Shown: positions 1,481 through 34,257 of the stretch, piece after piece
Layout of the letters: every line of letters starts with the position of its first letter
Numbering within the stretch: the first letter of the stretch is position 1
DNA from: Candidatus Magasanikiibacteriota bacterium
GTDB taxonomy: Bacteria > Patescibacteriota > Patescibacteriia > Magasanikbacterales > GWA2-37-8
Assembly: GCA_943359595.1 (NCBI GenBank)
Contig: CALRIA010000004.1
Location: 1-40,082, forward strand
Length of the DNA stretch: 40,082 nucleotides
Direction: 5' to 3'
Position numbers and translations under genes: made by a program
The notes under the pieces: model-generated
The model's database searches: none
What the model was told of the DNA's origin: nothing
What the model saw: the letters and a program-made list of their open reading frames with translations, nothing else

Positions 1481-1519
1481 ACCCATTTTCTAGTCCATCG
1501 AAGTTGTCCTAGTTGGGCT
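1481..1519 (-). ncRNA. Candidate structured 5' leader of rplU
   Basis: The minus strand folds as AGCCCA-A-CUAG-GA-CA-(ACUUCGA)-UG-GA-CUAG-AAAA-UGGGU, and lies between the predicted promoter and the ATG. Confidence 0.55.
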
Positions 1520-1542
1520 TACTTTAGATATAAAACGTGTTA

Positions 1543-1570
1543 ATTATAACAAAAATAAACAAAATGTCAA
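1543..1570 (-). promoter_or_regulatory. Sigma70-type promoter of rplU
   Basis: Minus strand TTGACA (1570-1565), 16 nt spacer ending TGT, TATAAT (1548-1543): perfect hexamers plus extended -10 TG. Confidence 0.85.
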
Positions 1571-1595
1571 GGGATACGACTAATTTATGCTTAAT

Positions 1596-2072
1596 CTACC
1601 GTAAAAACTCAAATTTATCCCCGATTTTAAAATTAAATTTTTGTGCAAATCCAGCTGGAATTTCCAACACTCGATCAGAGACATCTCTGGCTGGATATAA
1701 TGTCAATTCTTCCTCAATAACATCACGTTCGAGTGGCAAATTTGGCGCTATATCTATTATCATTCCTTTATTAAACCAAATAATATCCAAAGGGAATTTC
1801 ATATCTCTCATCACAAATACATGTTGTTTAGCTTCTGGAAAAACAAACAACATTCCATCATATTTACCCAAATCATCACGTCCACCCAATCCTTTTTGCC
1901 AATGTTTGATATTGTTAGCCACTAGTACGGTCAAAACTTGATTGTTGATTTTAAGAATAGCCTTTGGCCAATAAAAAGCATAATACAATTTTAAACCAAC
2001 AGTAAACACTACAATCAATCCTAAAATAAAGAATTGCCATTTTTTTATTTCAGATTTTTTATTTATTGACAT
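1596..2072 (-). CDS. DUF192 family protein with N-terminal membrane anchor
   Basis: GLGGR..L...DGMLFVF......FVMRDMKFPLDIIW and VLEIPAG motifs. ATG at 2072 is preferred over 2093 because it gives a shorter overlap. Confidence 0.85.
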   Translation of the reverse strand: MSINKKSEIKKWQFFILGLIVVFTVGLKLYYAFYWPKAILKINNQVLTVLVANNIKHWQKGLGGRDDLGKYDGMLFVFPEAKQHVFVMRDMKFPLDIIWFNKGMIIDIAPNLPLERDVIEEELTLYPARDVSDRVLEIPAGFAQKFNFKIGDKFEFLR

Positions 2073-3129
2073 ATTTTTGACGTTTAAAGACATACATTTC
2101 CATCACGACAATAGCTATTACCAATAATAACAAAGAAACAATTTTAAAAATACTACTCATATATAAAGCTGAAAAACCAAACAGAGCTGAGAAACCATAA
2201 AAAATTAATACAGCTTGCCATTGTTTAAAACCAATATCTACCAATCTAAAATGCAAATGTCGGCGATCACCTTTGGCTATGGATTGACCACTAAAAAGTC
2301 TAGAAGTAATAACCCAAATCAAATCAACTATTGGGACCGCCATAACAAGCAACGCCGTCGCAATTTTACTGCCCGCCACAATAGCTAGCACACCCAACAT
2401 CAAGCCAAGGAACTGCCCACCCCCCTCACCTAAAAATATTTTGGCCGGATAAAAATTTAATACTAAGAACCCAAAACAAGTCGCCGCCAAAACTATCGCA
2501 ACCACTGCCACATCCGGTTGATGAAATTTTGTTGCCCCACCAGCCAAAGCTGCGATAGAAAGTGCACCGATTGCTGACACTCCAGTCGATAAACCGTCTA
2601 AGCCATCTAAAATTTTAACGGTATACATCATACCTAGTAACCAGAAAAATGCCAAAATATCCACCCCTACTAAAACTGTGCCAAAATTTTGGGTATGAAT
2701 TTTCCAAAAATCTAACCCAATAGTACCACCAAACGGATTGGTAATACCATCAAAATTTAAACCACCGGCCAATACTAACAATACTGCTACTATCGAACCC
2801 AACAATCTCCACTGATATTTTAAACGCACAATGTCATCTAAATATCCGACAATCATTAAAATTAACCCAGCGAAAAATATCAACCAAAATTGATTGATGA
2901 TAAAATGTTTAAAAACAACACCACCACAATATAAAAATAAAATAACAATCCAAAAACTTAAAAAAATCCCCAAACCACCAAGTAGTGGAACGGGATTTTT
3001 ATGAAGTTTGCGATCTTTATCAGGATAATCAAAAATTTTTAATTTTGTGGCTATTTTTTTAATAAAAAAAGTTACAAAAATAGCTAAAAAAAACGGTAAA
3101 ATAAATATCAACGATAAAATAAACATCAT
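2059..3129 (-). CDS. Polyprenyl-phosphate HexNAc-1-phosphate transferase (WecA/TagO-like, MraY superfamily)
   Basis: About 10-11 hydrophobic segments; RKLHKNPVPLLGG, GYLDD, LDGLDGL, NFYPAKIFLG and DRRHLHFRL motifs. Confidence 0.88.
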   Translation of the reverse strand: MMFILSLIFILPFFLAIFVTFFIKKIATKLKIFDYPDKDRKLHKNPVPLLGGLGIFLSFWIVILFLYCGGVVFKHFIINQFWLIFFAGLILMIVGYLDDIVRLKYQWRLLGSIVAVLLVLAGGLNFDGITNPFGGTIGLDFWKIHTQNFGTVLVGVDILAFFWLLGMMYTVKILDGLDGLSTGVSAIGALSIAALAGGATKFHQPDVAVVAIVLAATCFGFLVLNFYPAKIFLGEGGGQFLGLMLGVLAIVAGSKIATALLVMAVPIVDLIWVITSRLFSGQSIAKGDRRHLHFRLVDIGFKQWQAVLIFYGFSALFGFSALYMSSIFKIVSLLLLVIAIVVMEMYVFKRQKYVNK

Positions 3130-5921
3130 ACAACTTTAATCTCTCCTCCTTGACCAATCATTACTGTATCACGACGTTTTAATTTACCAGATAATAATAA
3201 TTCTGCCAACTGATTTTCTACCTTTTCTTGTAAAGCACGACGCATTGGACGAGCACCAAATTCTGGATCAAACCCAACATCAGCCAAAAATTCCATCGCC
3301 GTTGGTTCTATCTTTAATTCAATTCCTTTGGCCTCCAAATCCTTGGCCACACGCTTAAGCATCAAACCAGCTATCTTAATAATATCCTCACGATTTAACG
3401 CTTTAAACAAAACAATGCCATCAAAACGATTTAAAAACTCCGGACGGAAGTATTGTTTGAGTTCACCATGCAATAATTTATCTTTAATAATATCGGAAGT
3501 CACTCCGGCACGCAATTGTTCTTGTACATAAGCAGTACCAGCATTGGCCGTCGCAATCAAAATTACATTGGTAAAATCCACCACTCGGCCAACACTGTCA
3601 GTTAAACGCCCATCATCCATTACCTGTAAAAATAAATTCAAAATATCTTTATCAGCTTTTTCCATCTCGTCTAACAATAATAAAGAAAACGGACTGCGAC
3701 GGATTGCCTCAGTCAACATACCACTACCTTTTTCACCTGGAGTACCAATCAAACGATAGATACTGCTTTTATCTTGGTATTCACTCATATCCAAACGTAC
3801 CATGCGTTCCTCACCACCAAAATATACCTCTGCAATAGTCTTGGCCAATTCGGTCTTACCCACACCAGTTGGACCCAAAAATAAAAAATTGGCAATCGGA
3901 CGTTTGGAAGATCTAATCTCCGCTCGCGCGCGTCGCAATGCATTGGCGACCAAACCAACTGCTTCAACTTGGCCGATTACTCGTTTATGCATTTCTTCTT
4001 CTAAATGCATCAACTTGGTACTTTCATCAGACGAAACAGTAGTGACTGGCACACCAGTTTTTTGTGCTACTACTACTGCCACTTCTTCACTAGTAACAAA
4101 ACTATTAGGGCCCTTTTTATTATGTGAAAAAGAAGCCGCTTCTGTCATTAATTCTTGCGCACTGCCAGGTAGATAAGACTCATGTAAAAATCTCGCCGCC
4201 AGCTGAACTGATTTGGCCACTGCGTCATAAGAAAAAAATACATTTTGTTTATATTCTATCGTACCAACTTTTGATTCCAAGACTTGAATGGCTTGATTTT
4301 CATCCATTTCTTTTATTTCCACTTTGGCGAATAAATTACCAAGTGGCGAACTAACGATATGACGAGAATATTCGTCGGGAGTAGTCGTGGCAAAAGTCAA
4401 AAATCGGCCACTACCCAAATATTCATTTAAAGTACCGGCAACATCAAGACTACCGGTCGCGCCACCGGCAGAAACGCCAGTTAATTCATGAATATTATTT
4501 ATAAATAAAATAACATTACCAGAACGACCAACATCTTGCATGATTCCAATTAAACGTTCAACCGCACCAGCTGGAGTAGTTCCGGCCAATAATTTTGGCA
4601 CGCTCAAACGCACTAAGCGTTTATCTTGTAAACGACTTGGGATATCGTCTTCTACCATTTTTTGAGCCAAACCTTGAATAATAGTAGTTTTACCAACACC
4701 AGTATCCCCGACTAAAATTACATTTTGTCCTCCACCTTCTACTATCCGGATCACTTCTTCTATTTCTTTTTCACGAGCAACACAACTTTCCAAATTACCA
4801 AACTGAGCTAAAATCGTCAGATCATCACTAAAATTATTTAAAAATGGAGTCTGCACTGCAGTCATAGCTTTATCCATGCCAGTTTTAGAACGACCAGCGG
4901 CAGCTTTGTGAAATTTTATATATTGACGATATAACCGCTCTCGAATTCTCGCCCATTCCACTACATTTAATAATTTTTGTTTATCAACTGCTAAATCAAA
5001 TAAAATTTCTTGTAATTTTTCTGATTGTTTTATAGTAGACAATAATAATTCTGTAACACTAACATATTCTTGGTGAGCACTATAGGCTTCTTCGTAAGCA
5101 TTAAATAAAATTTGTTGAAAATCAATCGAAATTAATGGCATAGTCATCTTATCTCGCTGACCACTTACCGCTGGAGAAGACCCTAAAACATCAGCCAAAG
5201 TTTTTTGTAATGAACCAGTCGAAATAGCCAAACGAGTAAAAATATTGGCAATGCGATCAGAAGAAAGTAAAGCGTAAAAAAGGTGTTCAGGAGTAACACT
5301 GCCGAAGCCACTTTTGTCCGCCACCAGATAAGCATCACCCAATACTGTCAACGCCTCATCCGTAAAAGTATCAGCAATATTTATTTTTTTCTTTGATTTT
5401 ATTTTTTTGGCTTGGCGCCAATCAACCACATCCATTTTTTCATCGAACCCTTCTTTGGTTTCGTATTGACTATAATGATAGCGCTCTACATTGTCTTTTT
5501 TAATTCTTTCAACTATTGCGCGATACCATAAATAAAATAAAATCGTAACACCAGCATAAAACAATGCTCCATCTATTCCTCTCAAATTCACAACCAACGA
5601 CCACCAAAAAGACCAATCAAGCAACATGGAAGGATTGGAAAAAATACCTTTATGTAAAAGAAAATATATCCCCCACCCCCAGGCATTTATCCACAAAAGT
5701 ATAAGGGAAACAAAACGAACTTTATTAAAAACACGTCGTGCTTTGGCCAAACTCAAATGATATCGAGTAAGTGGATAAAACCAAAATAACCAGTGTCCAC
5801 GAATAAAATGACCAACCGACATCCCGTGACATTCTTTGCATCTACTAAAACCAACAAAACCAGTAGCACGACAAATTGGACATGATAATAAAGAGATAGA
5901 TTGTGGTTTATCAAACAACAT
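3126..5921 (-). CDS. Atypical Clp/Hsp100 class I AAA+ ATPase with N-terminal Zn finger and transmembrane segments
   Basis: Two Clp-N repeats (TPEHLFYALL, VTELLLSTI); NBD1 Walker A GDTGVGKT; NBD2 GPTGVGKTE, LLLLDEMEKA, FRPEFLNRFD, GARPMRR. N-terminal CPIC...CKEC and two hydrophobic helices. Confidence 0.9.
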   Translation of the reverse strand: MLFDKPQSISLLSCPICRATGFVGFSRCKECHGMSVGHFIRGHWLFWFYPLTRYHLSLAKARRVFNKVRFVSLILLWINAWGWGIYFLLHKGIFSNPSMLLDWSFWWSLVVNLRGIDGALFYAGVTILFYLWYRAIVERIKKDNVERYHYSQYETKEGFDEKMDVVDWRQAKKIKSKKKINIADTFTDEALTVLGDAYLVADKSGFGSVTPEHLFYALLSSDRIANIFTRLAISTGSLQKTLADVLGSSPAVSGQRDKMTMPLISIDFQQILFNAYEEAYSAHQEYVSVTELLLSTIKQSEKLQEILFDLAVDKQKLLNVVEWARIRERLYRQYIKFHKAAAGRSKTGMDKAMTAVQTPFLNNFSDDLTILAQFGNLESCVAREKEIEEVIRIVEGGGQNVILVGDTGVGKTTIIQGLAQKMVEDDIPSRLQDKRLVRLSVPKLLAGTTPAGAVERLIGIMQDVGRSGNVILFINNIHELTGVSAGGATGSLDVAGTLNEYLGSGRFLTFATTTPDEYSRHIVSSPLGNLFAKVEIKEMDENQAIQVLESKVGTIEYKQNVFFSYDAVAKSVQLAARFLHESYLPGSAQELMTEAASFSHNKKGPNSFVTSEEVAVVVAQKTGVPVTTVSSDESTKLMHLEEEMHKRVIGQVEAVGLVANALRRARAEIRSSKRPIANFLFLGPTGVGKTELAKTIAEVYFGGEERMVRLDMSEYQDKSSIYRLIGTPGEKGSGMLTEAIRRSPFSLLLLDEMEKADKDILNLFLQVMDDGRLTDSVGRVVDFTNVILIATANAGTAYVQEQLRAGVTSDIIKDKLLHGELKQYFRPEFLNRFDGIVLFKALNREDIIKIAGLMLKRVAKDLEAKGIELKIEPTAMEFLADVGFDPEFGARPMRRALQEKVENQLAELLLSGKLKRRDTVMIGQGGEIKVV

Positions 5922-5922
5922 A

Positions 5923-6279
5923 CTATTTTATAAACAACATAATAAAACCATTTGCTACTACAACCGGTAATAAAAGCCAAATAATAAACAAAACCACACA
6001 CACCAACAACCAAAATATCAAAGCAACTGAACGCGCGCAAAACTGCACAAACCGCATCATAAAACTAATAATTCTTCCTTGCCAGTCATATTGCCCATAC
6101 ATCGGCACGAATAAATTTTTTAACCACAAACCAGGGGCTAAAGTTTGGTTACCTTCTAAGAAAAAACCAACACACCATTTGAAAGAATGCAAAACTCCGC
6201 CGGTATACCACCAAAGCGGAAAATAAAATATATCCACAATTGCATCAAACAAAATACGCTGAAAAATCAATAACCACAT
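5923..6279 (-). CDS. Small Trp/aromatic-rich membrane protein of unknown function, coupled to the Clp ATPase
   Basis: 118 aa, FPLWWYTGG and LFVPMYGQYDWQGR, long hydrophobic C-terminus; 1 nt gap to the ATPase ATG. Confidence 0.8.
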   Translation of the reverse strand: MWLLIFQRILFDAIVDIFYFPLWWYTGGVLHSFKWCVGFFLEGNQTLAPGLWLKNLFVPMYGQYDWQGRIISFMMRFVQFCARSVALIFWLLVCVVLFIIWLLLPVVVANGFIMLFIK

Positions 6280-6298: not shown

Positions 6299-6307
6299 AT
6301 TATACCA
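6299..6307 (-). promoter_or_regulatory. Extended -10 promoter for the membrane protein/Clp/WecA-like/DUF192 operon
   Basis: Minus strand TGGTATAAT about 20 nt upstream of ATG 6279; no clear -35. Confidence 0.6.
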
Positions 6308-6321: not shown

Positions 6322-6347
6322 TAAAAAATCCACCTACTGACGGATTT
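6322..6347 (-). terminator. Possible weak terminator after the ftsL-like gene
   Basis: Minus strand AAATCC-N10-GGATTT followed by TTTATTTTT; the stem is short. Confidence 0.35.
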
Positions 6348-6354
6348 CAAAAAT

Positions 6355-6717
6355 TTATTTGGCCATCGCCACTGCTCCACCAGCCGGATTATAACGTTGA
6401 AATTCCTCAACTGTTACCAAATTCATACCCTGCAGATGTTTTTCAATATTATTCATCGAACCGGCGTCAGCAATCTTTATCTCCAAACCTTGCAAATCAA
6501 CATTCATTTCGCTAATTTGGCTCTCCAGAGCATGCGCTTCATAACCACGAGTAGCTGCTGAATTGACTCTAACCATATAAGCTACAGACACTATAACAAC
6601 CACACTTAATAAGCTAGCACGCATTGCTCTGCCACTAAACCATTCTGGCATAGTGATGGTATACAAAGCATTTAAAAAATTATGATAATGAGCCTGAAAT
6701 TGACGTTTATAAGACAT
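6355..6717 (-). CDS. FtsL-like bitopic cell division protein
   Basis: Follows mraZ-rsmH; one TM helix, a coiled coil and SMNNIEK...GMNL, resembling the FtsL 'RIE..A..LGM' region. ATG 6717 is preferred to TTG 6738. Confidence 0.65.
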   Translation of the reverse strand: MSYKRQFQAHYHNFLNALYTITMPEWFSGRAMRASLLSVVVIVSVAYMVRVNSAATRGYEAHALESQISEMNVDLQGLEIKIADAGSMNNIEKHLQGMNLVTVEEFQRYNPAGGAVAMAK

Positions 6718-6724
6718 ATGTAAT

Positions 6725-7627
6725 TTAAATTTTTTCAATAATTCTTAATTTGGCACTACGACTACTAGGATTATTTTTGAGTTCTTCATCATTGGCGACG
6801 AGCGGTTTTTTGTTAATAGTTCTGATAGTTTTATTTTGATTTTTTACAAAAAATTGCTTTACTATTCTATCTTCTAGAGAGTGGAAAGAAATCACCGCCA
6901 AACGTCCGCCGCTTGATAATATTTCGATTGCTTGTGGTAAAACTTGTCGCACCACTTCTAATTCTTTATTTACAGCAATGCGTAAAGCTTGAAATACTTT
7001 GGTAGCTGGATGAATACCACCTACCCAAGGAATTTCTTTATCAGTTTTTAATTTGCGACGATAGACTCCCAAAATTATTTCTACTAGCGGTGCAGTACGA
7101 TCGATTTTATTTACCGCTCTAGCTCCAACAATTTCTTTGGCAATTTCTCGACTTAACTTTTCTTCTCCATAATAGCGCAATATTTTTTCTAATTCAGCTT
7201 CACTATAATCATTTATTATATCAGTTGCAGTTTCACCAGTTATGCCACCGTAGCGCATATCTAGCGGTTCGTCATTTTCAAAGCTAAATCCCCGACCGCG
7301 TTCTTTGAACTGTGGTGTGGACCAACCAAGATCCATTAAAACTGCATTAGCATTTTCAAAATTATTTGCAATAACTATTTCTTTTAAATTTACAAAATTA
7401 TCTCGAACAAAAATTACTTGATTCTCATAGCGATATAAATTTCTTTTTGCTCTCAGTAATGATTCCGGATCCGCATCAATGCCAAGTAATTTTCCTTTTG
7501 GGCCAATTTTATCCAAAATCGCTTCACTATGACCAGCGTCACCTAAAGTGCAATCAATTACTTTACTATTTTTACTTAAGTTCAACCCCTCAAGAACTTC
7601 ATTCAGTAGCACGGGTATGTGTCTCAT
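6725..7627 (-). CDS. rsmH: 16S rRNA m4C1402 methyltransferase RsmH
   Basis: HIPVLLNE, DCTLGDAGHS, DLGWSTPQ..RGFSF...PLDMR, HPATKVFQALRIAVN, ISFHSLEDRIVK, SRSAKLR. Confidence 0.97.
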   Translation of the reverse strand: MRHIPVLLNEVLEGLNLSKNSKVIDCTLGDAGHSEAILDKIGPKGKLLGIDADPESLLRAKRNLYRYENQVIFVRDNFVNLKEIVIANNFENANAVLMDLGWSTPQFKERGRGFSFENDEPLDMRYGGITGETATDIINDYSEAELEKILRYYGEEKLSREIAKEIVGARAVNKIDRTAPLVEIILGVYRRKLKTDKEIPWVGGIHPATKVFQALRIAVNKELEVVRQVLPQAIEILSSGGRLAVISFHSLEDRIVKQFFVKNQNKTIRTINKKPLVANDEELKNNPSSRSAKLRIIEKI

Positions 7628-7628: not shown

Positions 7629-8060
7629 TTATATTCCTAATTCCGCCATCTTCTCGGCAATTTCATTACTGTTGGTTTCGGTCTGACTCTTGTATATCTT
7701 CCATTTTTCTTCATCCCAGATTTCTGCGCGATTGTACAAACCAGCTAAAATAACATTTTTCTTTAAGCCTGCAAATTCACGTAGATACTCTGGCAAAACG
7801 ACACGTCCTTGCTTGTCTATTTCCACTTCCATTGCTCCCGCCAACATCAGACGAGAAAAAGCACGACTGTTGGATTGGCTAATTGGTAGAGTGGCCAACT
7901 TTTCGGCCAACTTTTCCCATTCGGTTTTAGTGTAAAGAAATAAACAGTTGTCTAGACCGCGAGTGACGATTGCTCCCTTACTTAAATCACGACGAAATTT
8001 GGCCGGTATAGCCAACCGTCCTTTTTCATCTAAATTGTGAGTATACTCACCGATAAACAT
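7629..8060 (-). CDS. mraZ: Division/cell wall cluster transcriptional repressor MraZ
   Basis: MFIGEYTHNLDEKGRLAIPAKFR and DKQGRVVLP repeats; canonical start MFIGE at ATG 8060. Confidence 0.97.
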   Translation of the reverse strand: MFIGEYTHNLDEKGRLAIPAKFRRDLSKGAIVTRGLDNCLFLYTKTEWEKLAEKLATLPISQSNSRAFSRLMLAGAMEVEIDKQGRVVLPEYLREFAGLKKNVILAGLYNRAEIWDEEKWKIYKSQTETNSNEIAEKMAELGI

Positions 8061-8074
8061 ATCATGAAAATTCA

Positions 8075-8110
8075 CCATTTCTCTCCACTACATCCCATTT
8101 TACACCACTT
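8075..8110 (-). promoter_or_regulatory. MraZ operator: four direct repeats with 10 bp period
   Basis: Minus strand AAGTGG (8110-8105), AAATGG (8100-8095), TAGTGG (8090-8085), AAATGG (8080-8075). MraZ is known to bind (G)TGG-core repeats spaced 10 bp upstream of its own gene. Confidence 0.8.
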
Positions 8111-14973: not shown

Positions 14974-16224
14974 ATGTCAGAACAACCAAGAAATTTAGAA
15001 TTCCATCATGTACCATACGGTCGACAAGATTTTGAATATGAACCAACTGGTGGATTGGCTGATATGTTTAAAAATGCTGATTATTTAAAACCAGAAATAA
15101 TTAAAAATTATATTCAACAAATTGTTGAACAGGTAAACCAAAGTCAGGACAGTACTGCTCAAAAGGCCTGTGTAATAGATTTGTTAAGAGAAGAAAATAT
15201 TCAAAAACTATTGGCACAAAAAGAAATTGACGCGGATGATAAAGAAGAAATAGAAAAAATGACTCTTTACTGGGTAAAAAAAATTAAAAAAGGAATAATC
15301 GAAGAATTAAAAAAATATTTACCAGATGATTTATATTTTTTTGTAAAAGAAAAAGAAAAACAAGATTACCATCTTTTCAATAAAAAAAGCATCATCATCG
15401 ATTCAAAAACTGATCGAGAATATTTTTTTAAAGAAAGTAGAATGTTCTCTAATGAAACAAGAGAAGAAATGGAAGAATGTTTTAGAATATTAAGAAATGC
15501 AATAAATAATTTAAAGAACCCAGAAAAAGAAATGCCTTTTATTATTAAACCAGAAAATATAGGACAAAATACCAAAGACGGCCACGTTGACAATCAATCT
15601 ATAAGTCTTACCTCCAACCAAGTGGATTTAACATCCATAGAAGACGCTCTCGGTGAAGAAGCGCACGGGAACATGTATTATAAAGAATTAGATGAAGCCT
15701 CTGCAAAAAAAGCATTGTCTGGCATTTTGGACTGTCTTAGAGGTACAAGATTTCTAGCTCAAAACGGTTTGACTCTCACTGACTTAGATACTGAGCCGAT
15801 CGGAAAAAATTTGGGAATAAACAACAAAAACAAAAGAGGTGTTCTTTTTGATTTGGATGGGTTACAACAGATTGGTCATAATATTAATAGGATCATCGCT
15901 CCATCTAAAGCAAACGGGGAAAAAGAGCTTCGTTTGTTTGCACCAGAATATAGATTGTTCGGTATAGAAGTTAACACTGTAGCTACTGCAGAATCGATGA
16001 TCTGGGAAATTGGTGATTCCATACTTGGGTTAGCCGAAATTCAAATCGACATACTTTTTAAATCTTCTGATTTTTTTGCTAAAAATAAATTAATCTCCGT
16101 ATGGGAAAAATTGAGAGAATTTAGCAATAAAATGATTGCCAAAAAACCAACGGATCGACCGTCGTTTGATATTTGTATCACAAAAATAGAAGAGATAATT
16201 AATAAACTTCCCGACCAACAATAA
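14974..16224 (+). CDS. Divergent protein-kinase-fold (Hanks-like) protein
   Basis: Motifs in kinase order: YFFK (K153), alphaC EEMEE, GTRFLAQNGLTLTD (D270)...KN (N279), FDLDG (D293), FAPEY, MIWEIG, PTDRPSF. Confidence 0.7.
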   Translation: MSEQPRNLEFHHVPYGRQDFEYEPTGGLADMFKNADYLKPEIIKNYIQQIVEQVNQSQDSTAQKACVIDLLREENIQKLLAQKEIDADDKEEIEKMTLYWVKKIKKGIIEELKKYLPDDLYFFVKEKEKQDYHLFNKKSIIIDSKTDREYFFKESRMFSNETREEMEECFRILRNAINNLKNPEKEMPFIIKPENIGQNTKDGHVDNQSISLTSNQVDLTSIEDALGEEAHGNMYYKELDEASAKKALSGILDCLRGTRFLAQNGLTLTDLDTEPIGKNLGINNKNKRGVLFDLDGLQQIGHNINRIIAPSKANGEKELRLFAPEYRLFGIEVNTVATAESMIWEIGDSILGLAEIQIDILFKSSDFFAKNKLISVWEKLREFSNKMIAKKPTDRPSFDICITKIEEIINKLPDQQ

Positions 16225-18395: not shown

Positions 18396-19247
18396 CTAGT
18401 TGGTAGCGCAGGCAGCACCAGCTGAAGCATTACCAGTAGCATCATAGCCGAATCCAGCCCCATAAGCTGCGCTAGCCAAGGTTGTGCCACATTCAGCTGG
18501 TGGGTTATTAAACGCAGCACAGATAGCTTGCTTAACTGCATCAGCAGTGCGGTTTACTCCATCTACTTGGGCACCATTGATTACTAGAGTTGGAGAACCC
18601 TGCACACCATATTTGATATTTAGGTCTTCATTGATTGGATAAACTGGATAACGACCAGATAGCCAAGTGGTTTGATCATTATATTTATCTAAAGTCTTAT
18701 ATTTAGCGTTTATAGCATTAACACAAGAACTTAGACTACCTTCAGACAATCCGGCTTGAGACAAACAGGCCTTATAATCATCTTTACCAGTAAAACATGT
18801 CAGGTAAGCTTGGTATTTAGCCGGTTGATTTTGTTCGATACAATATTGTCTAGTATTTTCTTCTATTTCTTTTAGACCATGCATCGCATAAGATACAAAT
18901 TTGATATCAATATCAGCTTTGTTTTTAAGTAAATTCCAAGCTGGCAAATAAGCTTTTTCCATCTGTAAACCAAATGGACAATAGGCCATAACGAATAACT
19001 CTACTTTCGGACGATCAGATTTTGTGACTGAAACTGGAGCAGAAGGTTGTGGTGGTTGAGCTTCCGGATCGGCAGTAGCCACTGGAGAAACCGAAGTAGA
19101 AAGGCCAGATTTATTATTTACTTTAAAATATAAACCTAACATTACTACAAAACCAATAGTACAAATAACTAAAATGCCGGCAACCAAGCCAACAAGCAAA
19201 GCACTCTTTGAATCTAGACTAGCAAAAAAAGATTTCTTCTGTTCCAT
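18396..19247 (-). CDS. Membrane-anchored thioredoxin-fold (DsbA-like) protein
   Basis: N-terminal TM helix, Pro-rich linker, VELFVMAYCPFG, cis-Pro loop GVQGSPTLVING, several additional Cys. Confidence 0.8.
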   Translation of the reverse strand: MEQKKSFFASLDSKSALLVGLVAGILVICTIGFVVMLGLYFKVNNKSGLSTSVSPVATADPEAQPPQPSAPVSVTKSDRPKVELFVMAYCPFGLQMEKAYLPAWNLLKNKADIDIKFVSYAMHGLKEIEENTRQYCIEQNQPAKYQAYLTCFTGKDDYKACLSQAGLSEGSLSSCVNAINAKYKTLDKYNDQTTWLSGRYPVYPINEDLNIKYGVQGSPTLVINGAQVDGVNRTADAVKQAICAAFNNPPAECGTTLASAAYGAGFGYDATGNASAGAACATN

Positions 19248-19274
19248 ATAAAATGTATTAGAAATTAATTATTA

Positions 19275-19865
19275 TTATTTAGATGCCAATATATTATAAA
19301 CCATAACTAAATCTTCGGCAATACTCGGATTGTGAGTATCCGCCTCTTCTAGCGGCAGACCTAAAACTACAATTTTTTCCTCATCCTTTAGCATCTTTAA
19401 ACCCACTTGTGAGAGATTGCGTCTATCAGCAAAGAAAGTAACGTGTCGCGCTACCTTAAACAATTTTGGGAGATAATAATAATTATAAAATTTTATTAAA
19501 TAACCAAAAAAATCTGGTGTTTTAAAATCGTGGTGATAAGTGATAATTAAACTTTTTTCCGGATGATCTGTAACCCATTGCAAAATTTTTTCGGCTGCAC
19601 CAAAAAATGGACAGTGTAAATTTATTATATCATAATATTCCCAAGCTTCAATATTTTTTTCAACCGGCTCTTGTCCAACAAATTTTCTGGAAGGGGCAGA
19701 TTTTTTTACTTCAAATGTGTCTTTTCTAGTAACACTACCATAATTTAAAGTAATAGCATCAGCTTCTACACCAAGATCACTTTCCGCTTCTAAAATTTTA
19801 AAGGCTTCGGTATTAATTTCCTCAAAATAATCAAAAGCATTAGGAATGATATGAAGAACTTTCAT
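19275..19865 (-). CDS. Glycosyltransferase family 4 N-terminal domain only (half GT-B)
   Basis: MKVLHIIP, DIINLHCPF, LIITYHHD, LFKVARHVTF; only 196 aa with no donor-binding domain. Confidence 0.65.
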   Translation of the reverse strand: MKVLHIIPNAFDYFEEINTEAFKILEAESDLGVEADAITLNYGSVTRKDTFEVKKSAPSRKFVGQEPVEKNIEAWEYYDIINLHCPFFGAAEKILQWVTDHPEKSLIITYHHDFKTPDFFGYLIKFYNYYYLPKLFKVARHVTFFADRRNLSQVGLKMLKDEEKIVVLGLPLEEADTHNPSIAEDLVMVYNILASK

Positions 19866-20193
19866 ATTTTTTTGTTTGATTAAGAGTGTCTTGTCTAACT
19901 AATTTAGTTATCTGACGTTCGATTTTTTCTAAACGTACAAAAATTTTAAATACTAAGAAAAATAACAAAGTTATTGTTAAATACAAAATAGCATCAACTC
20001 CCCTACCAACTCCTAGCACTTTAGCTAAAATTAAGGTAGAATTTGGATTAATAACTACCGCCATTGCCAAAATCCAAAAAATTACCCACCCCACCGTTTC
20101 TTTACCTTTCAAATATCCCGATCGAAATTTACTTAAAACTTTAAACAAGACAACTAAGAAAAAAACCACTAAAATAATTTGAATAACCATCAT
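19840..20193 (-). CDS. DUF2304 family membrane protein
   Basis: W...WI...AV.INP......AKVLGVGRGVDAILY...RLEKIERQITKLVRQ; typically paired with a DPM-synthase-like GT2. Confidence 0.88.
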   Translation of the reverse strand: MMVIQIILVVFFLVVLFKVLSKFRSGYLKGKETVGWVIFWILAMAVVINPNSTLILAKVLGVGRGVDAILYLTITLLFFLVFKIFVRLEKIERQITKLVRQDTLNQTKKYESSSYHS

Positions 20194-20198
20194 ATTTA

Positions 20199-20858
20199 TT
20201 AATTAATTTTAGCTATCAACAAATCCCACAAAATTTTTAAACCGCCTGACACACCCTGGCCATTTTCAAAATAAAGCACTTCAACTGGCAATTCACCATA
20301 TTTAAGATTGTTTTCTTTTACTAAACGTGGAATTTCAGAATTATGAGCCATCTGATCTTGGGTAATATTGATTTTTTCAAGCGCTCGACGATGCATTATC
20401 CTAAACCCATTGTGAACATCAGATAGATTTAATTTTGTTATAAAATTATTGATAATTCTACTAAATGGTAAAATAAAATATTTTTTAAAAAACGGAACTT
20501 TTGATCGAGTGTCTAAAAACCTAGAACCAAAAACTATATCTAAATTTTCTTCGATTAATTTTTCAATACCTTTATTGATATCATTTACATTAAATTGGCC
20601 ATCCGAATCAAAATGAACCACAATTTCCGCCCCATTTTGTAACACAAATTCGTTTCCAGTTTGCAAAGCCGCTCCCTGACCACGATTAATCATATGCTTT
20701 AAAACTTTTGCTCCCGCAGTTACAGCTTCACTGACCGTATTATCATCTGAACCATCATCGACAACTATGATGTTTTTAAAACCGTGTTGAAAAAGGTCGC
20801 GAATTACGCGACCGATTTTTTGTTCTTCATTATAAGCTGGAAGCACTATGAATATCAT
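20199..20858 (-). CDS. GT2 glycosyltransferase, DPM1-like polyprenol-phosphate sugar synthase
   Basis: VLPAYNEE, VVDDGSDD, NRGQGAALQTG, FDSDGQ, VFGSRFL, DVHNGFR. Confidence 0.9.
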   Translation of the reverse strand: MIFIVLPAYNEEQKIGRVIRDLFQHGFKNIIVVDDGSDDNTVSEAVTAGAKVLKHMINRGQGAALQTGNEFVLQNGAEIVVHFDSDGQFNVNDINKGIEKLIEENLDIVFGSRFLDTRSKVPFFKKYFILPFSRIINNFITKLNLSDVHNGFRIMHRRALEKINITQDQMAHNSEIPRLVKENNLKYGELPVEVLYFENGQGVSGGLKILWDLLIAKIN

Positions 20859-20883
20859 ATACCGTCTTAAACAACCATCGTAT

Positions 20884-21900
20884 TTATTTACTATGGAATA
20901 ACAAGGCTTCTTTGTTGGCTACTGTATAATCTATTGCTTTCTGCAAACCATCTTCTAAGCGAACTAACGGCAACCAGCCTAAAGATTCTTTGACATAAGT
21001 CAGATCCGGTAAGCCTTTTTTGGTCAAAAATACTAGTGGTTTTTCAAAAACTACCCTGGAAGTAGAACCGGTAAGTTCAATAATTTTTTGAGCTACTTCA
21101 GTATAACTTATCACTCGATCGCCACCTAAATTGACTATTTTTACATCAGGAGAAGCCCCCATCAAACGCGCAAAACCATCTACCATATCAGTGACATATA
21201 AAAGCGACGTAGACATAGTTTCATCTCCATAAATAACCAAATCTTTTCCTTCTAATGCGTTGATTATAAAATCAGGAATCAACTGTCCTTCAAATAATTT
21301 CATACGTGGTCCATATGTGGTAAAAACACGAGCAATTTTGGCATCAATGCCATAGATTTGACGATAAGTTTCTACACAAGTTTCAGCGAAACGTTTTCCT
21401 TCGTCATAACAAGCGCGAGGAGTTAGATGATCTACTACTCCCTGGTAAGATTCCAAAAAAACACCGCCATCCTGAGGATTGCCATAAACCACAGAGCTAG
21501 AAGCAAAAACATATTTGGCACGATATTTTACTGCCAAATCCAAGGTGCTAATCATGGCTGAAGAATTGGAAAGCAACGATTTCATCTTTAATCTTTCAAA
21601 ATCATTCGGGCTAGTTGGACAAGCCAAATGATAAATTTCTTGAACACCTTGAAATTTTACTTTAAATTTATCCAACTCATCAAATTTATTTAAATCAATC
21701 GGATTGTCTACATCATAATTAATAAATTCAAAATCAGGATATTGCAAAAGATGTTCGATATTTTTTGGCGATGAATTTGAAAAATCATCAACACAAATTA
21801 CATTGGCTTCTTTTAGCAAACGTTCGCACAGATGGGAGCCGATAAAGCCAGCTCCACCAGTAACCAAGATATTTTTTTTCTCAAATACAGGATTTTCCAT
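20884..21900 (-). CDS. Extended SDR nucleotide-sugar epimerase/dehydratase, UDP-glucuronate decarboxylase-like
   Basis: TGGAGFIGSHL, IYHLACPTSP, RACYDEGKRFAET (YxxxK), RVFTTYGPRM. ATG 21900 preferred. Confidence 0.88.
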   Translation of the reverse strand: MENPVFEKKNILVTGGAGFIGSHLCERLLKEANVICVDDFSNSSPKNIEHLLQYPDFEFINYDVDNPIDLNKFDELDKFKVKFQGVQEIYHLACPTSPNDFERLKMKSLLSNSSAMISTLDLAVKYRAKYVFASSSVVYGNPQDGGVFLESYQGVVDHLTPRACYDEGKRFAETCVETYRQIYGIDAKIARVFTTYGPRMKLFEGQLIPDFIINALEGKDLVIYGDETMSTSLLYVTDMVDGFARLMGASPDVKIVNLGGDRVISYTEVAQKIIELTGSTSRVVFEKPLVFLTKKGLPDLTYVKESLGWLPLVRLEDGLQKAIDYTVANKEALLFHSK

Positions 21901-21929
21901 AAGGAAAAACATTAATTTTTAGCGCTTAT

Positions 21930-21958
21930 ACTATAGCATTTATCTAAAAAAAGGGCAA
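21930..21958 (-). promoter_or_regulatory. Sigma70-type promoter for the SDR/GT2/DUF2304/half-GT operon
   Basis: Minus strand TTGCCC (21958-21953), 17 nt spacer ending TGC, TATAGT (21935-21930). Confidence 0.55.
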
Positions 21959-21968
21959 CCACAAAAAA

Positions 21969-23495
21969 TTAATTTTGGTCCAACCAGCCGTATTGTTTGA
22001 TTGTAATTTTATTAGTGGTTTTTTTACCTTTTTTTACTAATTTTTCTGTAAATTCCAACTGCACTTTCCTTTGACTATCAATAGTTACAATTTTAATACC
22101 AGTCGGTATTTTTTTAGTTGAGTAATCAGTGGTTGGAACGGCTTTTTCCATCCATCTGTGACCTTGTTCAGTGAAAAATTGAACATAATAATAATTGTTT
22201 CTTTTTGTCAAAGAATACACCTCATCTAATTTATTATTAAAAGAGCGAGCGGCAGCTAAAGTTATTATAGACGCATCGCCTGTATCAGCAAAAAAATAAT
22301 TAATCTCATCGTGTTTAGTAAATATTACATTGCCTTTAAAATAATATTTTTCTTTAGGTAAAAAATAAGTTATCTGTGAACCATCTAATGCACTTTCTGC
22401 GGCCCGACCAATATTTAAACGACCAAACCCAACATCATTTGGAAAATCCAAATTTTTAGATTGAATATCATCACTATTTTTAAGAAGATTATTAATAATA
22501 TCTTTAGCTGACCAATCTGGTCGCAAAGATTTTATCAAAGCCGCCGCTCCAGCTACTAGTGGCACCGAAAATGAAGTCCCCTTCCATGGACCATCAAATT
22601 CTTTATTATAGCCATAAACCGGTGAATATCTTTGAGTACTAAAAATATTTTGTCCAGGTGCGAATAGATCAACACAATTGCCGTAATTTGAAAATTTACT
22701 AAGTTGATCATTTTCATCAACAGATGATACGCCGAGAATCCAATTTTCAGCCGAATCAACATCCATACAAATTGGGTAATGACGAATATTGTTTAAATTA
22801 CCATTACCAGAACGTTGATCGTTTCCAGCGGCCGCCACAACAACAATGCCAGCATCATAAGCTTCACGCAATATTTTTTTTAAAGATATATCATCATTGA
22901 ATCCAACCATGCTCAAACTAATAACATCTGCTCCATTATCTATGGCATAACGTACCGCTTCTATTACTTGCACATATGAGCCACTACCGTCGCTAGCTAT
23001 TGCGCGCAATGGCATGATTTTTACTTTCCAACTCAAACCAACGCCATCTTGGCCATTGTCTCCTACTGCTCCAATCAAACCGGCAATAACAGTGCCGTGG
23101 TTAATCGCATCTGGATCATCGGTATTATCAAATACACTAGTACGAATATCATTACTGTTTTCAATAAAATTCCAACCATGCACATCGTCCACTAGACCAT
23201 TACCATCATCATCATAGCCATTGTCTGAAATTTCATATGGATTGGTCCAAATATTATTTTTTAGATCACCATGCCAAATATCGGCTCCAGTATCAACGAT
23301 AGCTACAGTCACCTGATTTGAACCAGTTGTATAGTCCCAAGCTTTTTCCGCCCCAATTTGTTGCCATATTTTTTGTTGTTTTGAATAATCTGGATCATTT
23401 GGTATTTTAGCCTCAACAACGGTAGAAAATAAAAAAAGACCCAAAAACACAATTAGGGTTGATTTTTTAGCCAAATTATAATATAATCTAAACAT
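21969..23495 (-). CDS. Secreted S8 (subtilisin-like) serine peptidase
   Basis: Signal peptide ending VEA; catalytic triad VDTG (D), NHGT (H), GTSFSVP (S); oxyanion AAAGND. Confidence 0.93.
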   Translation of the reverse strand: MFRLYYNLAKKSTLIVFLGLFLFSTVVEAKIPNDPDYSKQQKIWQQIGAEKAWDYTTGSNQVTVAIVDTGADIWHGDLKNNIWTNPYEISDNGYDDDGNGLVDDVHGWNFIENSNDIRTSVFDNTDDPDAINHGTVIAGLIGAVGDNGQDGVGLSWKVKIMPLRAIASDGSGSYVQVIEAVRYAIDNGADVISLSMVGFNDDISLKKILREAYDAGIVVVAAAGNDQRSGNGNLNNIRHYPICMDVDSAENWILGVSSVDENDQLSKFSNYGNCVDLFAPGQNIFSTQRYSPVYGYNKEFDGPWKGTSFSVPLVAGAAALIKSLRPDWSAKDIINNLLKNSDDIQSKNLDFPNDVGFGRLNIGRAAESALDGSQITYFLPKEKYYFKGNVIFTKHDEINYFFADTGDASIITLAAARSFNNKLDEVYSLTKRNNYYYVQFFTEQGHRWMEKAVPTTDYSTKKIPTGIKIVTIDSQRKVQLEFTEKLVKKGKKTTNKITIKQYGWLDQN

Positions 23496-23539
23496 AAATA
23501 GCTTAAAATATAGTATACACTAATAAATACTTTAATTCC

Positions 23540-24892
23540 ATGTACCGTCTAAAACAACTAACCATTCTTATCGGCGATCTATTATCTCTTTATATAGGTT
23601 TGTATTTAGCTATATTTTTACGATATTTGGATATTCCTAGCCAAACAAATATAAATAATTTATTAGGACCTTTTAGTGGTTTATTTTTTATAGCCATTAT
23701 TATCGCTTTTATCAGTGGTATATATGATTTAGGAAAAGCCAAAAATACTTTTGCTCTTTATCAAAAAATATTTTTTGCGGCTATAATTTGGACTGTACTA
23801 GGAGTATTATACTTTTATATTACACCAAAAACTAATATTAACCCAAAAACAATTCTAGCTCTAACCACTTTATGCGGATTTGGTTTATTGTCCTTGTGGC
23901 GGTTTTTATACAATCGTTTTGTAGCCACAACTATTTTAAAAACCAAAATTGTCTTCGTTGGATTTTCCAGTGAAGCGCAAAAAATTACCGAAACAATAAC
24001 GCGCTCACCTCAAATAGGCTATGAAATAGTTGGTATAGTAGGTTCACCAAATTGTTCAACAGACATTCCTTGTATTCAAAACTTATCTGATCTTAAGATG
24101 AATCCAGATTTAATTGTACTTGATTTTAACTATCAAAAAAATAATACTATCACCAAAGAATTATATCAAAAAATATTTCAACAAATTGGCATTATTGATT
24201 TGGCGGATTTTTATGAAATAATTTATCGCCGTCTACCACCTTTTACTTTTTCGGAAAATTGGTTTTTAACTAAATTTCAAGAACAATCTAAAAAAATATA
24301 CGATCGTTTTCGTTTGCTAACAGATTTTATTGCCGCTATTTTTATGGCAATATTTTTTATCATAACTTTTCCATTGATTGCCATAGCTATAAAATTAAAT
24401 TCAAGAGGGCCAATCTTATTTCAACAATTCCGAATTGGTCGTAATGGTCAAATATTTTCTATCTACAAATACCGAACAATGAGAGCTTTGAATTCTGATG
24501 GCAGCGCCGAGATTAACGGACCACAATATGCTACTGAAAAAGATAACCGCATTACATTGATAGGAAAATTTTTAAGAGCTACGCGTTTAGATGAAATACC
24601 TCAATTTATCAATATCTTTAAAAATGAGATGGGACTAATCGGACCACGACCAGAGAGACCAGAATTTGTTGACCAACTAACAAAATTAATGCCATTTTAC
24701 GCCTTGCGTCATTTGGTAAAACCAGGATTAACTGGTTGGGCTCAACTACAAAGTGGCTACTATGGAACTCTAGATGAGAATTTAGGAAAATTGGAATATG
24801 ATTTATATTATATAAAAAATCGCGGTCCAATCTTGGATATCGCAATTATTTTAAAAACTATTAGTGTTGTACTAGGAATGATTGGACGATAA
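23540..24892 (+). CDS. Polyprenyl-phosphate hexose-1-phosphate transferase (WcaJ/WbaP-like)
   Basis: Four N-terminal TMs, a Rossmann-like middle domain, then KYRTM, RATRLDEIPQ, GPRPE, KPGLTGWAQ, DLYYIKN. Confidence 0.93.
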   Translation: MYRLKQLTILIGDLLSLYIGLYLAIFLRYLDIPSQTNINNLLGPFSGLFFIAIIIAFISGIYDLGKAKNTFALYQKIFFAAIIWTVLGVLYFYITPKTNINPKTILALTTLCGFGLLSLWRFLYNRFVATTILKTKIVFVGFSSEAQKITETITRSPQIGYEIVGIVGSPNCSTDIPCIQNLSDLKMNPDLIVLDFNYQKNNTITKELYQKIFQQIGIIDLADFYEIIYRRLPPFTFSENWFLTKFQEQSKKIYDRFRLLTDFIAAIFMAIFFIITFPLIAIAIKLNSRGPILFQQFRIGRNGQIFSIYKYRTMRALNSDGSAEINGPQYATEKDNRITLIGKFLRATRLDEIPQFINIFKNEMGLIGPRPERPEFVDQLTKLMPFYALRHLVKPGLTGWAQLQSGYYGTLDENLGKLEYDLYYIKNRGPILDIAIILKTISVVLGMIGR

Positions 24893-24904
24893 TAAATAAC
24901 AAAT

Positions 24905-24934
24905 AAAAAATCCTGTATCAACACAGGATTTTTT
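24905..24934. terminator. Bidirectional intrinsic terminator
   Basis: AAAAAATCCTGT-ATCAAC-ACAGGATTTTTT between convergent genes. Confidence 0.9.
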
Positions 24935-24937
24935 ATT

Positions 24938-26026: not shown

Positions 26027-26064
26027 ACATTTTTCGTCATTCTCGCGAAAACAGTAATCTAAAA

Positions 26065-27162: not shown

Positions 27163-27165
27163 ATA

Positions 27166-28005
27166 TTAAACAGAATAATATTTATTATTTCCTTTCCACT
27201 TCCAAATATATTTTAACCAACTAACAAAATGAATACGAGCTAATTTATTTTTGAAGAAGGCTTTAAAAATACCTGGCACTTTTGCCGAGTCGCGAGCATG
27301 CGCATGAAAAATTTTAATGTCAGCCAAATAATAAACTGGCCAACCTTTTTCCCACATCCGGCGACACCAATCAGAATCTTCCATATACATAAAATAACGA
27401 TCATCAAAAAAACCCACTTGATCCGTTGCTTCTTTTCGCGCCATCATGACTGAACCCATCACCCAATCTACTGGACGAGTTTCGTTGTGATCAAAGTCTT
27501 TCATTAATAATCGGTCAGAATATTTTTGAATCCAAGCGTATTTTTTATCAAAATTTATTTGCTTTAACGGCTTAATAAAAATTGAAGGAAAATCAAAGCG
27601 ATAACAAGAATATTGTAACGAACCATCCATATTCAAAATTTTTGGTCCAATCATACCAATTTTTGGATGTTCATCCATATATTTTATCATACGTTCAATA
27701 GTATGGAAATTTTCTGGAATAATAGTGTCCGGATTAAGCGTCATATAATAACGAGCTTCCACTTGTGTAAACGCCATATTCAAACCGCGGCCAAAACCAA
27801 CGTTATCACCACAACTAAAATATTGAATGTTGGGAAACTTTTCTTTGAGCGCTTCTTCTACACCATCTTTATTTAATGAATTATCCGCCACAATAATTTT
27901 TACATCATAAGAACAATTCGCAATATCTTTGATAACCGAATCAAGCGCACGTAAAATGTCGTCTTTAGATAAAAAATTTAGAAATACTAGATTGACATCT
28001 TTCAT
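27166..28005 (-). CDS. GT2 glycosyltransferase (WbbL-like)
   Basis: IVADNS, NVGFGRGLN, LNPDT, DWVMGSVMM, FFDDRYFMYMEDSDWCRR. Confidence 0.9.
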   Translation of the reverse strand: MKDVNLVFLNFLSKDDILRALDSVIKDIANCSYDVKIIVADNSLNKDGVEEALKEKFPNIQYFSCGDNVGFGRGLNMAFTQVEARYYMTLNPDTIIPENFHTIERMIKYMDEHPKIGMIGPKILNMDGSLQYSCYRFDFPSIFIKPLKQINFDKKYAWIQKYSDRLLMKDFDHNETRPVDWVMGSVMMARKEATDQVGFFDDRYFMYMEDSDWCRRMWEKGWPVYYLADIKIFHAHARDSAKVPGIFKAFFKNKLARIHFVSWLKYIWKWKGNNKYYSV

Positions 28006-28006
28006 A

Positions 28007-29065: not shown

Positions 29066-29081
29066 TTTGATTCAAATATTA

Positions 29082-30041: not shown

Positions 30042-30060
30042 AAAATTAAATAATAAATAA

Positions 30061-34256: not shown

Positions 34257-34257
34257 A

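Follow-up and report, generated by a model that had tools for sequence, protein, structure and literature searches.

A predicted membrane-anchored Hsp100/Clp-family ATPase with a degenerate first ring and a small membrane partner in one branch of the Patescibacteria

How might an Hsp100/Clp motor work if it sits in a membrane, has one ring that appears catalytically dead and has lost the tyrosines of its pore? This question is raised by two adjacent genes in contig CALRIA010000004.1 of a Candidatus Magasanikiibacteriota bacterium (assembly GCA_943359595.1), of which we analysed positions 1 to 40,082, a stretch of 40,082 nucleotides referred to here as the window. One gene (3126-5921) encodes a 931-residue ATPase and the other (5923-6279) a 118-residue protein that we call its partner; both lie on the minus strand, as do the domains and motifs placed within them below. 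Hsp100/Clp motors are soluble, and their mechanism is built on two active rings and on tyrosine-bearing pore loops. A reading made from the sequence alone had proposed that the two products form a two-component, membrane-anchored AAA+ module, and comparison across relatives strongly supports this. The account of its function that we consider probable, if only slightly so, is that the second ring of a membrane-anchored Hsp100 protein, acting together with the partner, drives the remodelling of a few envelope clients embedded in the membrane.

Pfam and NCBIfam models, alignment to ClpC, an AlphaFold2 (AF2) model and fold comparison bear on what the ATPase is. By fold and domain order it is assigned as a class I (two-ring) Hsp100/Clp paralog. 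Pfam places a Clp_N domain (PF02861, E = 3.7e-7; 4992-5366), which aligns with the N-domain of ClpC and is modelled by AF2 as a helical bundle (residues 188-309), ahead of a first AAA+ module, D1 (4107-4805), with AAA_lid_9 (PF17871, E = 1.2e-5), and a second, D2 (3129-4106), made of AAA_2 (PF07724, E = 5.6e-51) and ClpB_D2-small (PF10431, E = 6.7e-26). Clp_N, two AAA+ modules and ClpB_D2-small are shared with ClpC, ClpB and ClpA, and D2 is ~50% identical to that of ClpC/ClpB. The best PDB matches by both sequence and fold are ClpC, ClpC1 and ClpB, and the AF2 model matches ClpC/ClpB with a template-modelling score of ~0.8 over ~580 residues (D1-D2) at 38-41% identity. Every NCBIfam score is nonetheless far under its equivalog cut-off: 572 bits against 1232 for ClpB (TIGR03346), 525 against 993 for ClpA (TIGR02639), 450 against 885 for ClpV (TIGR03345), with a partial score for ClpG/ClpK as well.

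Several named functions were considered and rejected. For ClpV/TssH, the score is below cut-off and type VI secretion genes were not found within the window. A ClpB-type disaggregase would carry a middle (M) domain; in the alignment to ClpC, whose M-domain spans ~57 residues, D2 follows the small domain of D1 without any insertion, and the ClpB score is likewise below cut-off. The same is true of the scores for the ClpP-coupled unfoldases ClpA and ClpC, and their ClpP-docking loop is not there: measured against ClpC, the region falls 7 residues short, and neither VGF nor any [LIV]G[FL] motif occurs in it. The sequence-only reading had noted both absences (no IGF/LGF motif, no middle coiled coil), and the alignment bears it out. 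Without an M-domain the protein resembles ClpA and differs from ClpB and ClpC; without an IGF/VGF loop it differs from ClpA and ClpC.

To compare the catalytic motifs we read them by direct translation and by residue-by-residue alignment to Bacillus subtilis ClpC, and all the coordinates previously assigned to ATPase motifs proved correct. D1 is degenerate. Its Walker A, GDTGVGKT (4686-4709), is intact as in ClpC; the segment at the Walker B position reads ILFINNIHEL (4482-4511) where ClpC has ILFIDE, so that DE has become NN; pore loop 1 is AGTTPAGA (4563-4586) in place of AGTKYRGE, with TPA for KYR; and the arginine-finger segment is PLGNLF (4329-4346) in place of ALERRF, with ERRF turned into GNLF and GN standing for RR. 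These three replacements were as first reported. The intact Walker A also stands for the window protein, although it is the less common form: in most relatives the motif reads GK[KRM][ST], that is, K, R or M after the lysine and S or T one position later, whereas the window protein has GK-T. Because of this substitution in most relatives, D1 probably binds nucleotide at most, without hydrolysis. By its motifs, D1 is predicted to be a conserved yet catalytically dead ring.

By the same criteria D2 reads as a fully intact ATPase ring. Walker A (GPTGVGKTE, 3849-3875), Walker B (LLLLDEMEKA, 3654-3683), the arginine finger R832 (LNRFD, 3420-3434) and sensor 2 (GARPMRR, 3237-3257) are all intact, and the sensor 1 asparagine is present as in ClpC. 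Two competent rings, a defining property of class I Hsp100 proteins, are therefore not what we find: competence is lost in D1 and kept in D2. Hsp100 proteins normally have both rings active. A silent but conserved ring, presumably binding nucleotide for assembly, is known from D2 of NSF and D1 of PEX1/PEX6, in which the other ring does the work; the motifs suggest the same division of labour here, in a different AAA+ clade.

These departures recur in all three homolog sets: 120 database homologs (58-89% identity), 74 species-representative genomes and 35 divergent metagenomic relatives. Homologs in the first two sets share the consensus I[HN]N at the D1 Walker B, G/S/K followed by N/T/S/D at the arginine-finger positions, G[TA][TS]P[AS]GA in pore loop 1 and PG[EQ][KQ]G[ST]G[IVLM]L in the D2 loop, and homologs with intact DE and KYRG motifs were not found. 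Walker A, Walker B, the arginine finger and sensor 2 of D2, whose retention had been claimed from the window alone, are invariant in 75/75 sequences. Mean identity is 63% in D1 and 79% in D2. The ratio of nonsynonymous to synonymous substitution rates (dN/dS), computed against four close relatives, comes to 0.05-0.07 in the ATPase gene and 0.08-0.12 in that of the partner; dS in this comparison, at ~1, is close to saturation. Members of the divergent clade have DN, EN, ED, NN or QN at the D1 Walker B, never DE, and their D1 arginine finger is gone; every D2 catalytic motif is intact and the transmembrane segments are there. Given that ~110 relatives share the deviations, that conservation in D1 stands at 63% and that dN/dS is ~0.06, we reject lineage-specific decay of a housekeeping Clp protein.

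A further argument against decay comes from one of the related loci (designated by L and a number), L116, in which a canonical ClpB of 879 residues (1511-4150 of that locus, minus strand) is encoded upstream of the pair and divergent from it. This ClpB has a KFR pore loop, the DE pair, ERRF, GYVG and an M-domain, and is 90% identical to Falkowbacteria ClpB. The sequence-only reading had asked whether a canonical clpB or clpC lies elsewhere in the genome; because one sits beside the pair here, the membrane-anchored protein is an additional paralog, at least in L116. A search for ClpB returned Falkowbacteria-like proteins only, with no contig shared with the membrane-anchored Clp contigs. The nearest relatives of the window locus carry the label Candidatus Magasanikbacteria, and record names across the family give Magasanikbacteria, Uhrbacteria and Kerfeldbacteria, to which a Falkowbacteria-like lineage is added. 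Many loci, among them L005, L006, L008, L011 and L023, come from species-representative metagenome-assembled genomes that are almost certainly mislabelled, their titles being 'uncultured Gammaproteobacteria bacterium' and 'Candidatus Udaeobacter sp.'.

The pore loops depart from class I Hsp100 proteins in both rings, since the aromatic residue is missing from each. In the window protein the D2 loop is GTPGEKGSGML (3714-3746), with no tyrosine where ClpC has its GYVG segment; GTP----GEKGSGMLTE aligns with GSPPGYVGYDEGGQLTE of ClpC, leaving a four-residue deletion, and shortened loops have 4-6 residues fewer than that of ClpC. The claim that the pores lack tyrosines is thus correct for the window protein; it does not extend to all relatives. 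Two divergent members, L117 and L120, have a D2 loop of canonical length with GY(A/G)G, together with the same partner and membrane anchor, and in L122, with that partner and anchor too, pore loop 1 has stayed aromatic (QFG). Among the other divergent members, most have a shortened loop followed by GYLTEA. In addition, position 735, just past the shortened loop, is always hydrophobic or tyrosine: I, V, L or M in the Magasanikbacteria clade (M735 in the window protein) and Tyr in the sister clade, where canonical Clp proteins have Gln. These patterns suggest that the family started out with its membrane anchor, its partner and a dead D1, and that loss of the aromatic D2 loop came afterwards, with the hydrophobic residue next to it kept. 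The ancestor probably threaded polypeptide, because two members keep GY(A/G)G, and the late loss of the loop together with the kept hydrophobic residue weakens any claim that the protein does not engage polypeptide. The original suggestion that the machine does not thread in the canonical way has accordingly lost ground, given an intact D2 motor, two GY(A/G)G members and a hydrophobic or aromatic residue after the loop.

The loops also bear on a rival explanation, in which the protein is a switch or assembly factor resembling Torsin: D2 would turn over ATP to assemble and take apart a membrane complex that includes the partner, or to change its conformation, and nothing would be translocated, in line with the earlier proposal that threading is not canonical. 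Torsins are Clp/Hsp100 relatives without aromatic pore loops that act at a membrane with membrane-anchored cofactors, LAP1 and LULL1 (PMC5425593). The 75/75 Magasanikbacteria-like sequences without an aromatic pore-loop residue, the 4-6-residue shortening of the D2 loop and the small residues of pore loop 1, conserved as GT[TS]P[AS]GA, would all fit such a switch. Torsin, however, has one ring and takes its arginine finger from the cofactor, whereas D2 here has R832 and all its other catalytic motifs; L117 and L120 combine the same partner and architecture with GY(A/G)G; a hydrophobic or tyrosine residue is conserved right past the shortened loop; and the partner, as modelled by AF2 and compared by Foldseek, is a helical hairpin and not the AAA-like domain of LAP1/LULL1. 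We regard a Torsin-like switch as rather unlikely, though the strongest of the rivals considered here.

The N-terminal part opens with four cysteines (C14, C17, C28 and C31; motif CPICRATGFVGFSRCKECHG, 5823-5882) spaced CxxC-x10-CxxC over residues 14-31. The sequence-only reading had called this a DnaJ-like zinc finger; the four-cysteine motif is real and its cysteines are invariant in 75/75 species sequences, and the likeness to DnaJ is one of pattern. Because no Pfam zinc-finger model matches it, we prefer the name C4 zinc ribbon. A beta-hairpin follows (AF2 strands within residues 12-47), and then a conserved juxtamembrane motif, YPLTRYHL. A Clp ATPase that begins with a C4 module recalls the zinc domains of ClpX and ClpE. 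The N-terminal zinc domain of ClpX recruits substrates and adaptors. The resemblance has limits: the spacing is x10 here against ~x18-19 in ClpX, two transmembrane helices follow, a subclade has no ribbon, and Pfam detected no homology to the ClpX/ClpE domain. Specifically, the ribbon is missing or degenerate in 9/36 N-terminally complete sequences of the divergent clade, and because ribbon-less members retain the transmembrane hairpin and the partner, it appears dispensable for the core function. Loci seen without a ribbon are L111, L113-L115, L118, L121, L127, L130, L137 and L083; L121 has Ser at the Cys positions.

Two predicted transmembrane helices come next, at residues 68-90 (5652-5720; within AF2 helix 53-90) and 116-137 (5511-5576; AF2 helix 116-141), both called from hydropathy. 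Basic residues flank the first on its N-terminal side, and by the positive-inside rule the zinc ribbon and the Clp body would both be cytoplasmic. All relatives with a complete N-terminus that were examined have two hydrophobic segments, of which one or both exceed a strict hydropathy threshold, so the membrane character that had been read from a single sequence is kept family-wide; the hairpin retains its hydrophobicity at ~30% sequence identity. After the second helix a flexible linker of ~50 residues (low AF2 confidence at residues 150-160) leads to Clp_N, and between Clp_N and D1 lies a family-specific helix, NVVEWxRIRExL (4893-4982; AF2 helix 314-343). Its N319, W323, R325 and E328 are invariant and the identity of the region is 0.68; it aligns poorly to ClpC and has no counterpart there.

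In FtsH, too, two N-terminal transmembrane helices anchor an AAA+ ring on the cytoplasmic surface of the membrane. FtsH itself belongs to the classic AAA clade, with one ring, an aromatic pore loop and a C-terminal metalloprotease, none of which is present here; an FtsH-like protease is rejected, given that only the anchor topology matches and that Pfam finds no protease domain. A variant without the protease deserves separate mention: with the ring facing the membrane, D2 could act as an FtsH- or Msp1-like extractase or quality-control unfoldase and thread membrane proteins (tail-anchored or hairpin proteins, perhaps the partner itself) out of the bilayer. The anchor followed by AAA+, the intact D2 motor, the retention of the ancestral D2 tyrosine by some members and the strongly hydrophobic C-terminal helix of the partner all agree with this. 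It would be hard to reconcile with the absence of an aromatic pore loop from most members and of both a protease domain and a ClpP loop, and a client is not expected to be strictly co-encoded under purifying selection of the kind seen for a cofactor. We consider an extractase unlikely.

The two genes travel together. A scan for the small protein, using one genome per species (185,579 species), found it encoded in 386 genomes; in 80/80 loci that were kept, an ATPase gene (including its N-terminal part) lies directly 3′ of it on the same strand, in most cases with a gap of -26 to +26 nt. In the window, the partner stop codon and the ATPase ATG are 1 nt apart, as first described. Starting from the other side, a metagenome scan with a 4-sequence alignment of N-termini from divergent ATPases yielded 53 loci, whose identity to the window ranges over 23-51% N-terminally and 42-73% across the AAA+ region. 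The partner lies directly 5′ of the ATPase in 50/50 of those with upstream sequence; the remaining 3/53 end at a contig edge. Six distant relatives of the partner were looked up. Three of these, L084 (Uhrbacteria), L085 and L087, are intact with room downstream and have the same arrangement; L086 has the same gene order in fragments, on a frameshift-ridden contig; and in two high-GC relatives, L081 and L083, a partial ORF follows the partner, that of L083 opening with two transmembrane segments and a Clp_N-like domain. On the L086 contig (ENA, 85.6 kb) the partner, Clp, GT4, UvrC and DnaB genes are all fragmented, as is typical of an error-rich long-read assembly, and its 414-residue 'fusion' protein P0306 is an assembly artefact. 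The conservation of the small gene beside the ATPase, on which the two-component proposal depended, is thus seen from both sides (80/80 and 50/50), alongside hydrophobic segments throughout.

The promoter region of the pair is conserved as well. On the minus strand, a terminator-like hairpin with a 10-bp stem and a T-run (6325-6348) lies 3′ of an ftsL-like gene, between it and the pair, and sets the pair apart from the mraZ-rsmH-ftsL genes. An extended -10 element, TGGTATAAT (6299-6307), follows 19 nt 5′ of the partner ATG, in agreement with the promoter originally proposed. The box TGnTAnAAT occurs ≤120 nt 5′ of the partner in 55/78 related loci as compared with 2.4% of random windows, and because it is conserved there, the pair probably heads its own transcription unit. 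Similar hairpins are visible 5′ of the partner at related loci. A hairpin and then an extended -10 about 20 nt before the ATG looks like a conserved promoter design, with no obvious -35, in an AT-rich genome.

The partner itself is a real gene of a family without annotation. A collection clustered at 90% identity holds 305 homologs; a profile search finds 426 clusters at 50% identity (261 at E ≤ 1e-10), nearly all of 105-160 residues; the small proteins encoded just ahead of the ATPase have 110-135. With these homologs, 19 invariant alignment columns and a dN/dS of ~0.1, a chance ORF is ruled out. Conserved features are D16, YFPxWWY (YFPLWWY), GN, LAPxLW, PMxGQxDxxGR (PMYGQxDxxGR), R76 and R83. 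Searched at E ≤ 10 with each member of the alignment, Pfam gave only a sub-threshold DUF4873 match; NCBIfam, PADLOC and PDB sequence profiles gave nothing, and Foldseek against PDB folds gave generic helical hairpins only (E > 1).

How this small protein might sit in the membrane is suggested by its AF2 model (mean predicted local distance difference test 88.7), in which two long helices, residues 2-47 and 66-117, are joined by a conserved loop. Both ends (the first ~22 and the last ~35 residues) are hydrophobic, the C-terminal helix strongly so, and the middle holds conserved basic residues. Because of the hydrophobic ends and the basic middle, the positive-inside rule predicts a membrane hairpin from which a helical stalk and the conserved tip, PMYGQxDxxGR, would project into the cytoplasm. 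Alternatively, the partner may be tail-anchored, its N-terminal helix being amphipathic.

What process the pair serves is addressed by its neighbours. Seven consecutive minus-strand genes comprise mraZ (7629-8078; MraZ is annotated at homologous loci), rsmH (6725-7627; Methyltransf_5 at homologous loci), a gene for an ftsL-like small membrane protein (6355-6738), the partner and ATPase genes, a GT4 gene (2059-3129) and a DUF192 gene (1596-2093; PF02643), a frequent fourth member of the cluster. The ATPase stop codon overlaps the GT4 ATG (ATGA), which indicates translational coupling, and the DUF192 gene overlaps the end of the GT4 gene. GT4 encodes a divergent WecA/MraY-like polyprenyl-phosphate sugar-phosphate transferase (PF00953), with NCBIfam scores of 98 bits for WecA (cut-off 326) and 61 for mraY (cut-off 192) and an E of only ~1e-8 to solved MraY structures in the PDB. 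A true MraY is not supported, since the protein is below every equivalog cut-off and distant from those structures. The gene occupies the position expected for mraY in a division and cell wall (dcw) cluster. Because this transferase is co-operonic and division genes are adjacent, a role in envelope or division processes is the natural suggestion. Within the Magasanikbacteria-like set, mraZ-rsmH lies 5′ in 65/80 loci and GT4 lies 3′ in 62/80, several of the others being cut by contig ends; the divergent set has mraZ in 3/53 and GT4 in 25/53. No conserved third gene lies between ATPase and GT4 in the divergent clade, only variable short ORFs. The sequence-only reading had offered an envelope or pilus complex or the site of host contact; for pilus or host contact there is no support, and the neighbours point to envelope biogenesis, if to anything.

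Elsewhere in the window, and counted as part of the envelope context, are MurJ, FtsW/RodA (36131-37231) and a surface-glycan cluster. The glycan cluster (19200-36100, mostly minus strand) contains five GT2 genes, two epimerase/dehydratases, RmlD-like and FdtA/WxcM-like genes, a nucleotidyl transferase, Bac_transf, an SIS/PGI-like gene and an ORF with a PEP-utilizers mobile domain; an LTD-domain protein lies at 38010-40079. ORFs of 416, 319, 369, 283 and 196 residues within 14974-16224 (plus strand), 29082-31170 (minus) and 18396-19865 (minus) have no Pfam match at E ≤ 1e-4. ClpP, ClpX and ClpS genes are absent from the window. At other loci, a phosphagen-kinase-like gene (ATP-gua_PtransN and ATP-gua_Ptrans) lies just 5′ of mraZ in L084 (4898-5932), and hrcA-grpE-dnaK follows the pair in L085 (13064-16284) with one unannotated gene between. 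PADLOC gave only generic matches to the D2 AAA region (PDC-M37B, DolB) and none to the partner; with no full-length match and a chromosomal context fixed across species, a role in anti-phage defence is rejected.

Together, these features can be assembled into the D2-driven remodelling machine that we favour. The ATPase would form a hexamer at the cytoplasmic face of the membrane, tethered by its N-terminal two-helix hairpin. D1 would serve as a nucleotide-binding or assembly scaffold, resembling the silent rings of NSF and PEX1/6, and D2 would be the only motor. The machine would be independent of ClpP, because the docking loop is missing, and of coupling to DnaK, because the M-domain is missing. 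The partner would be an obligate, stoichiometric cofactor or membrane adaptor whose cytoplasmic stalk might touch the ATPase. The loop of D2 is polar as well as short, and the aliphatic M735 would be the probable contact with substrate; low-grip or short-stroke pulling might be expected rather than processive general unfolding. Clients might be membrane proteins of envelope or division biogenesis.

A membrane-bound Hsp100 ring could also be imagined as an export motor, and here the orientation of the tether matters. In this alternative the ring would sit on a channel formed by its own 12 transmembrane helices together with those of the partner and push substrate across the membrane. Membrane-associated Hsp100 proteins do exist, HSP101 of the PTEX complex being among the PDB relatives of the ATPase (6e10/6e11), and a 1:1 complex would place many transmembrane helices per hexamer in the membrane. 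PTEX HSP101 and chloroplast ClpC/Hsp93 are Hsp100 motors of membrane translocons; they are soluble, are recruited by partners and keep their pore-loop tyrosines. The protein described here, unlike them, is itself predicted to be an integral membrane protein; aromatic pore loops are absent, an N-terminal tether would turn the substrate-entry (N/D1) face rather than the exit face to the membrane, and no genes for secreted cargo are conserved nearby. We consider an export motor very improbable.

Several observations weigh against D2-driven remodelling of envelope clients. Losing both aromatic pore loops normally abolishes translocation by Hsp100 proteins (ClpB, Hsp104, ClpX), and any pulling mechanism is uncertain because both have been lost here. 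The transmembrane topology of both products is a prediction from hydropathy and AF2 helices, and on the Kyte-Doolittle scale the helices of the window ATPase are only moderately hydrophobic. Contact between ATPase and partner is suggested by gene linkage. The link to envelope biogenesis is a weak one drawn from gene neighbourhood, and that neighbourhood is not universal: mraZ is found in the same 3/53 divergent loci, and GT4 is absent from 18/80 loci (some of them cut by contig ends) and from 28/53. The terminator and promoter part the pair from the dcw genes. Finally, the window sequence is present in three DNA runs from a lake-water metagenome; the runs that hold it are DNA only, with no RNA run to speak for expression.

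Set against its closest relatives, then, this ATPase differs from ClpA, ClpB and ClpC in being membrane-anchored and zinc-ribbon-capped with an obligate small membrane partner, in having a D1 without Walker B acids, arginine fingers or KYR, and in its short, tyrosine-less D2 loop. A full-text literature search found no membrane-anchored or D1-degenerate Hsp100 protein in Patescibacteria, an absence that is not proof. To our knowledge, no described Hsp100 protein is an integral membrane protein or combines a dead D1 with a tyrosine-less D2.

These results have implications for both the Hsp100 family and the organisms that carry this branch of it. By its features, the family departs from the rules of Hsp100 proteins in four ways (membrane-integral, one dead ring, stripped pore loops, an obligate tiny partner), yet purifying selection on it is strong across several hundred species. 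It is thus a natural experiment in what an Hsp100 ring does without aromatic pore loops, with L117, L120 and L122 as built-in controls, and the partner, with its 426 clusters, defines a new family of small membrane proteins. More speculatively, and with a likelihood that we put well short of even, the pair may constitute a new integral-membrane class of Hsp100 proteins confined to one branch of the Patescibacteria, in which D2, as the single live ring and with truncated, non-aromatic pore loops, acts on or through the cytoplasmic stalk of the partner to control a step in envelope biogenesis. If this is true, that step could be the co-operonic polyprenyl-phosphate transferase or the divisome, and the pair would realise the Torsin-cofactor principle in bacteria, transmitting force in a way unlike other Hsp100 proteins. 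The cell biology of the ultra-small Patescibacteria is scarcely known and they have not yet been grown alone; a conserved, lineage-specific component linked to the envelope or to division would offer a handle on their envelopes.

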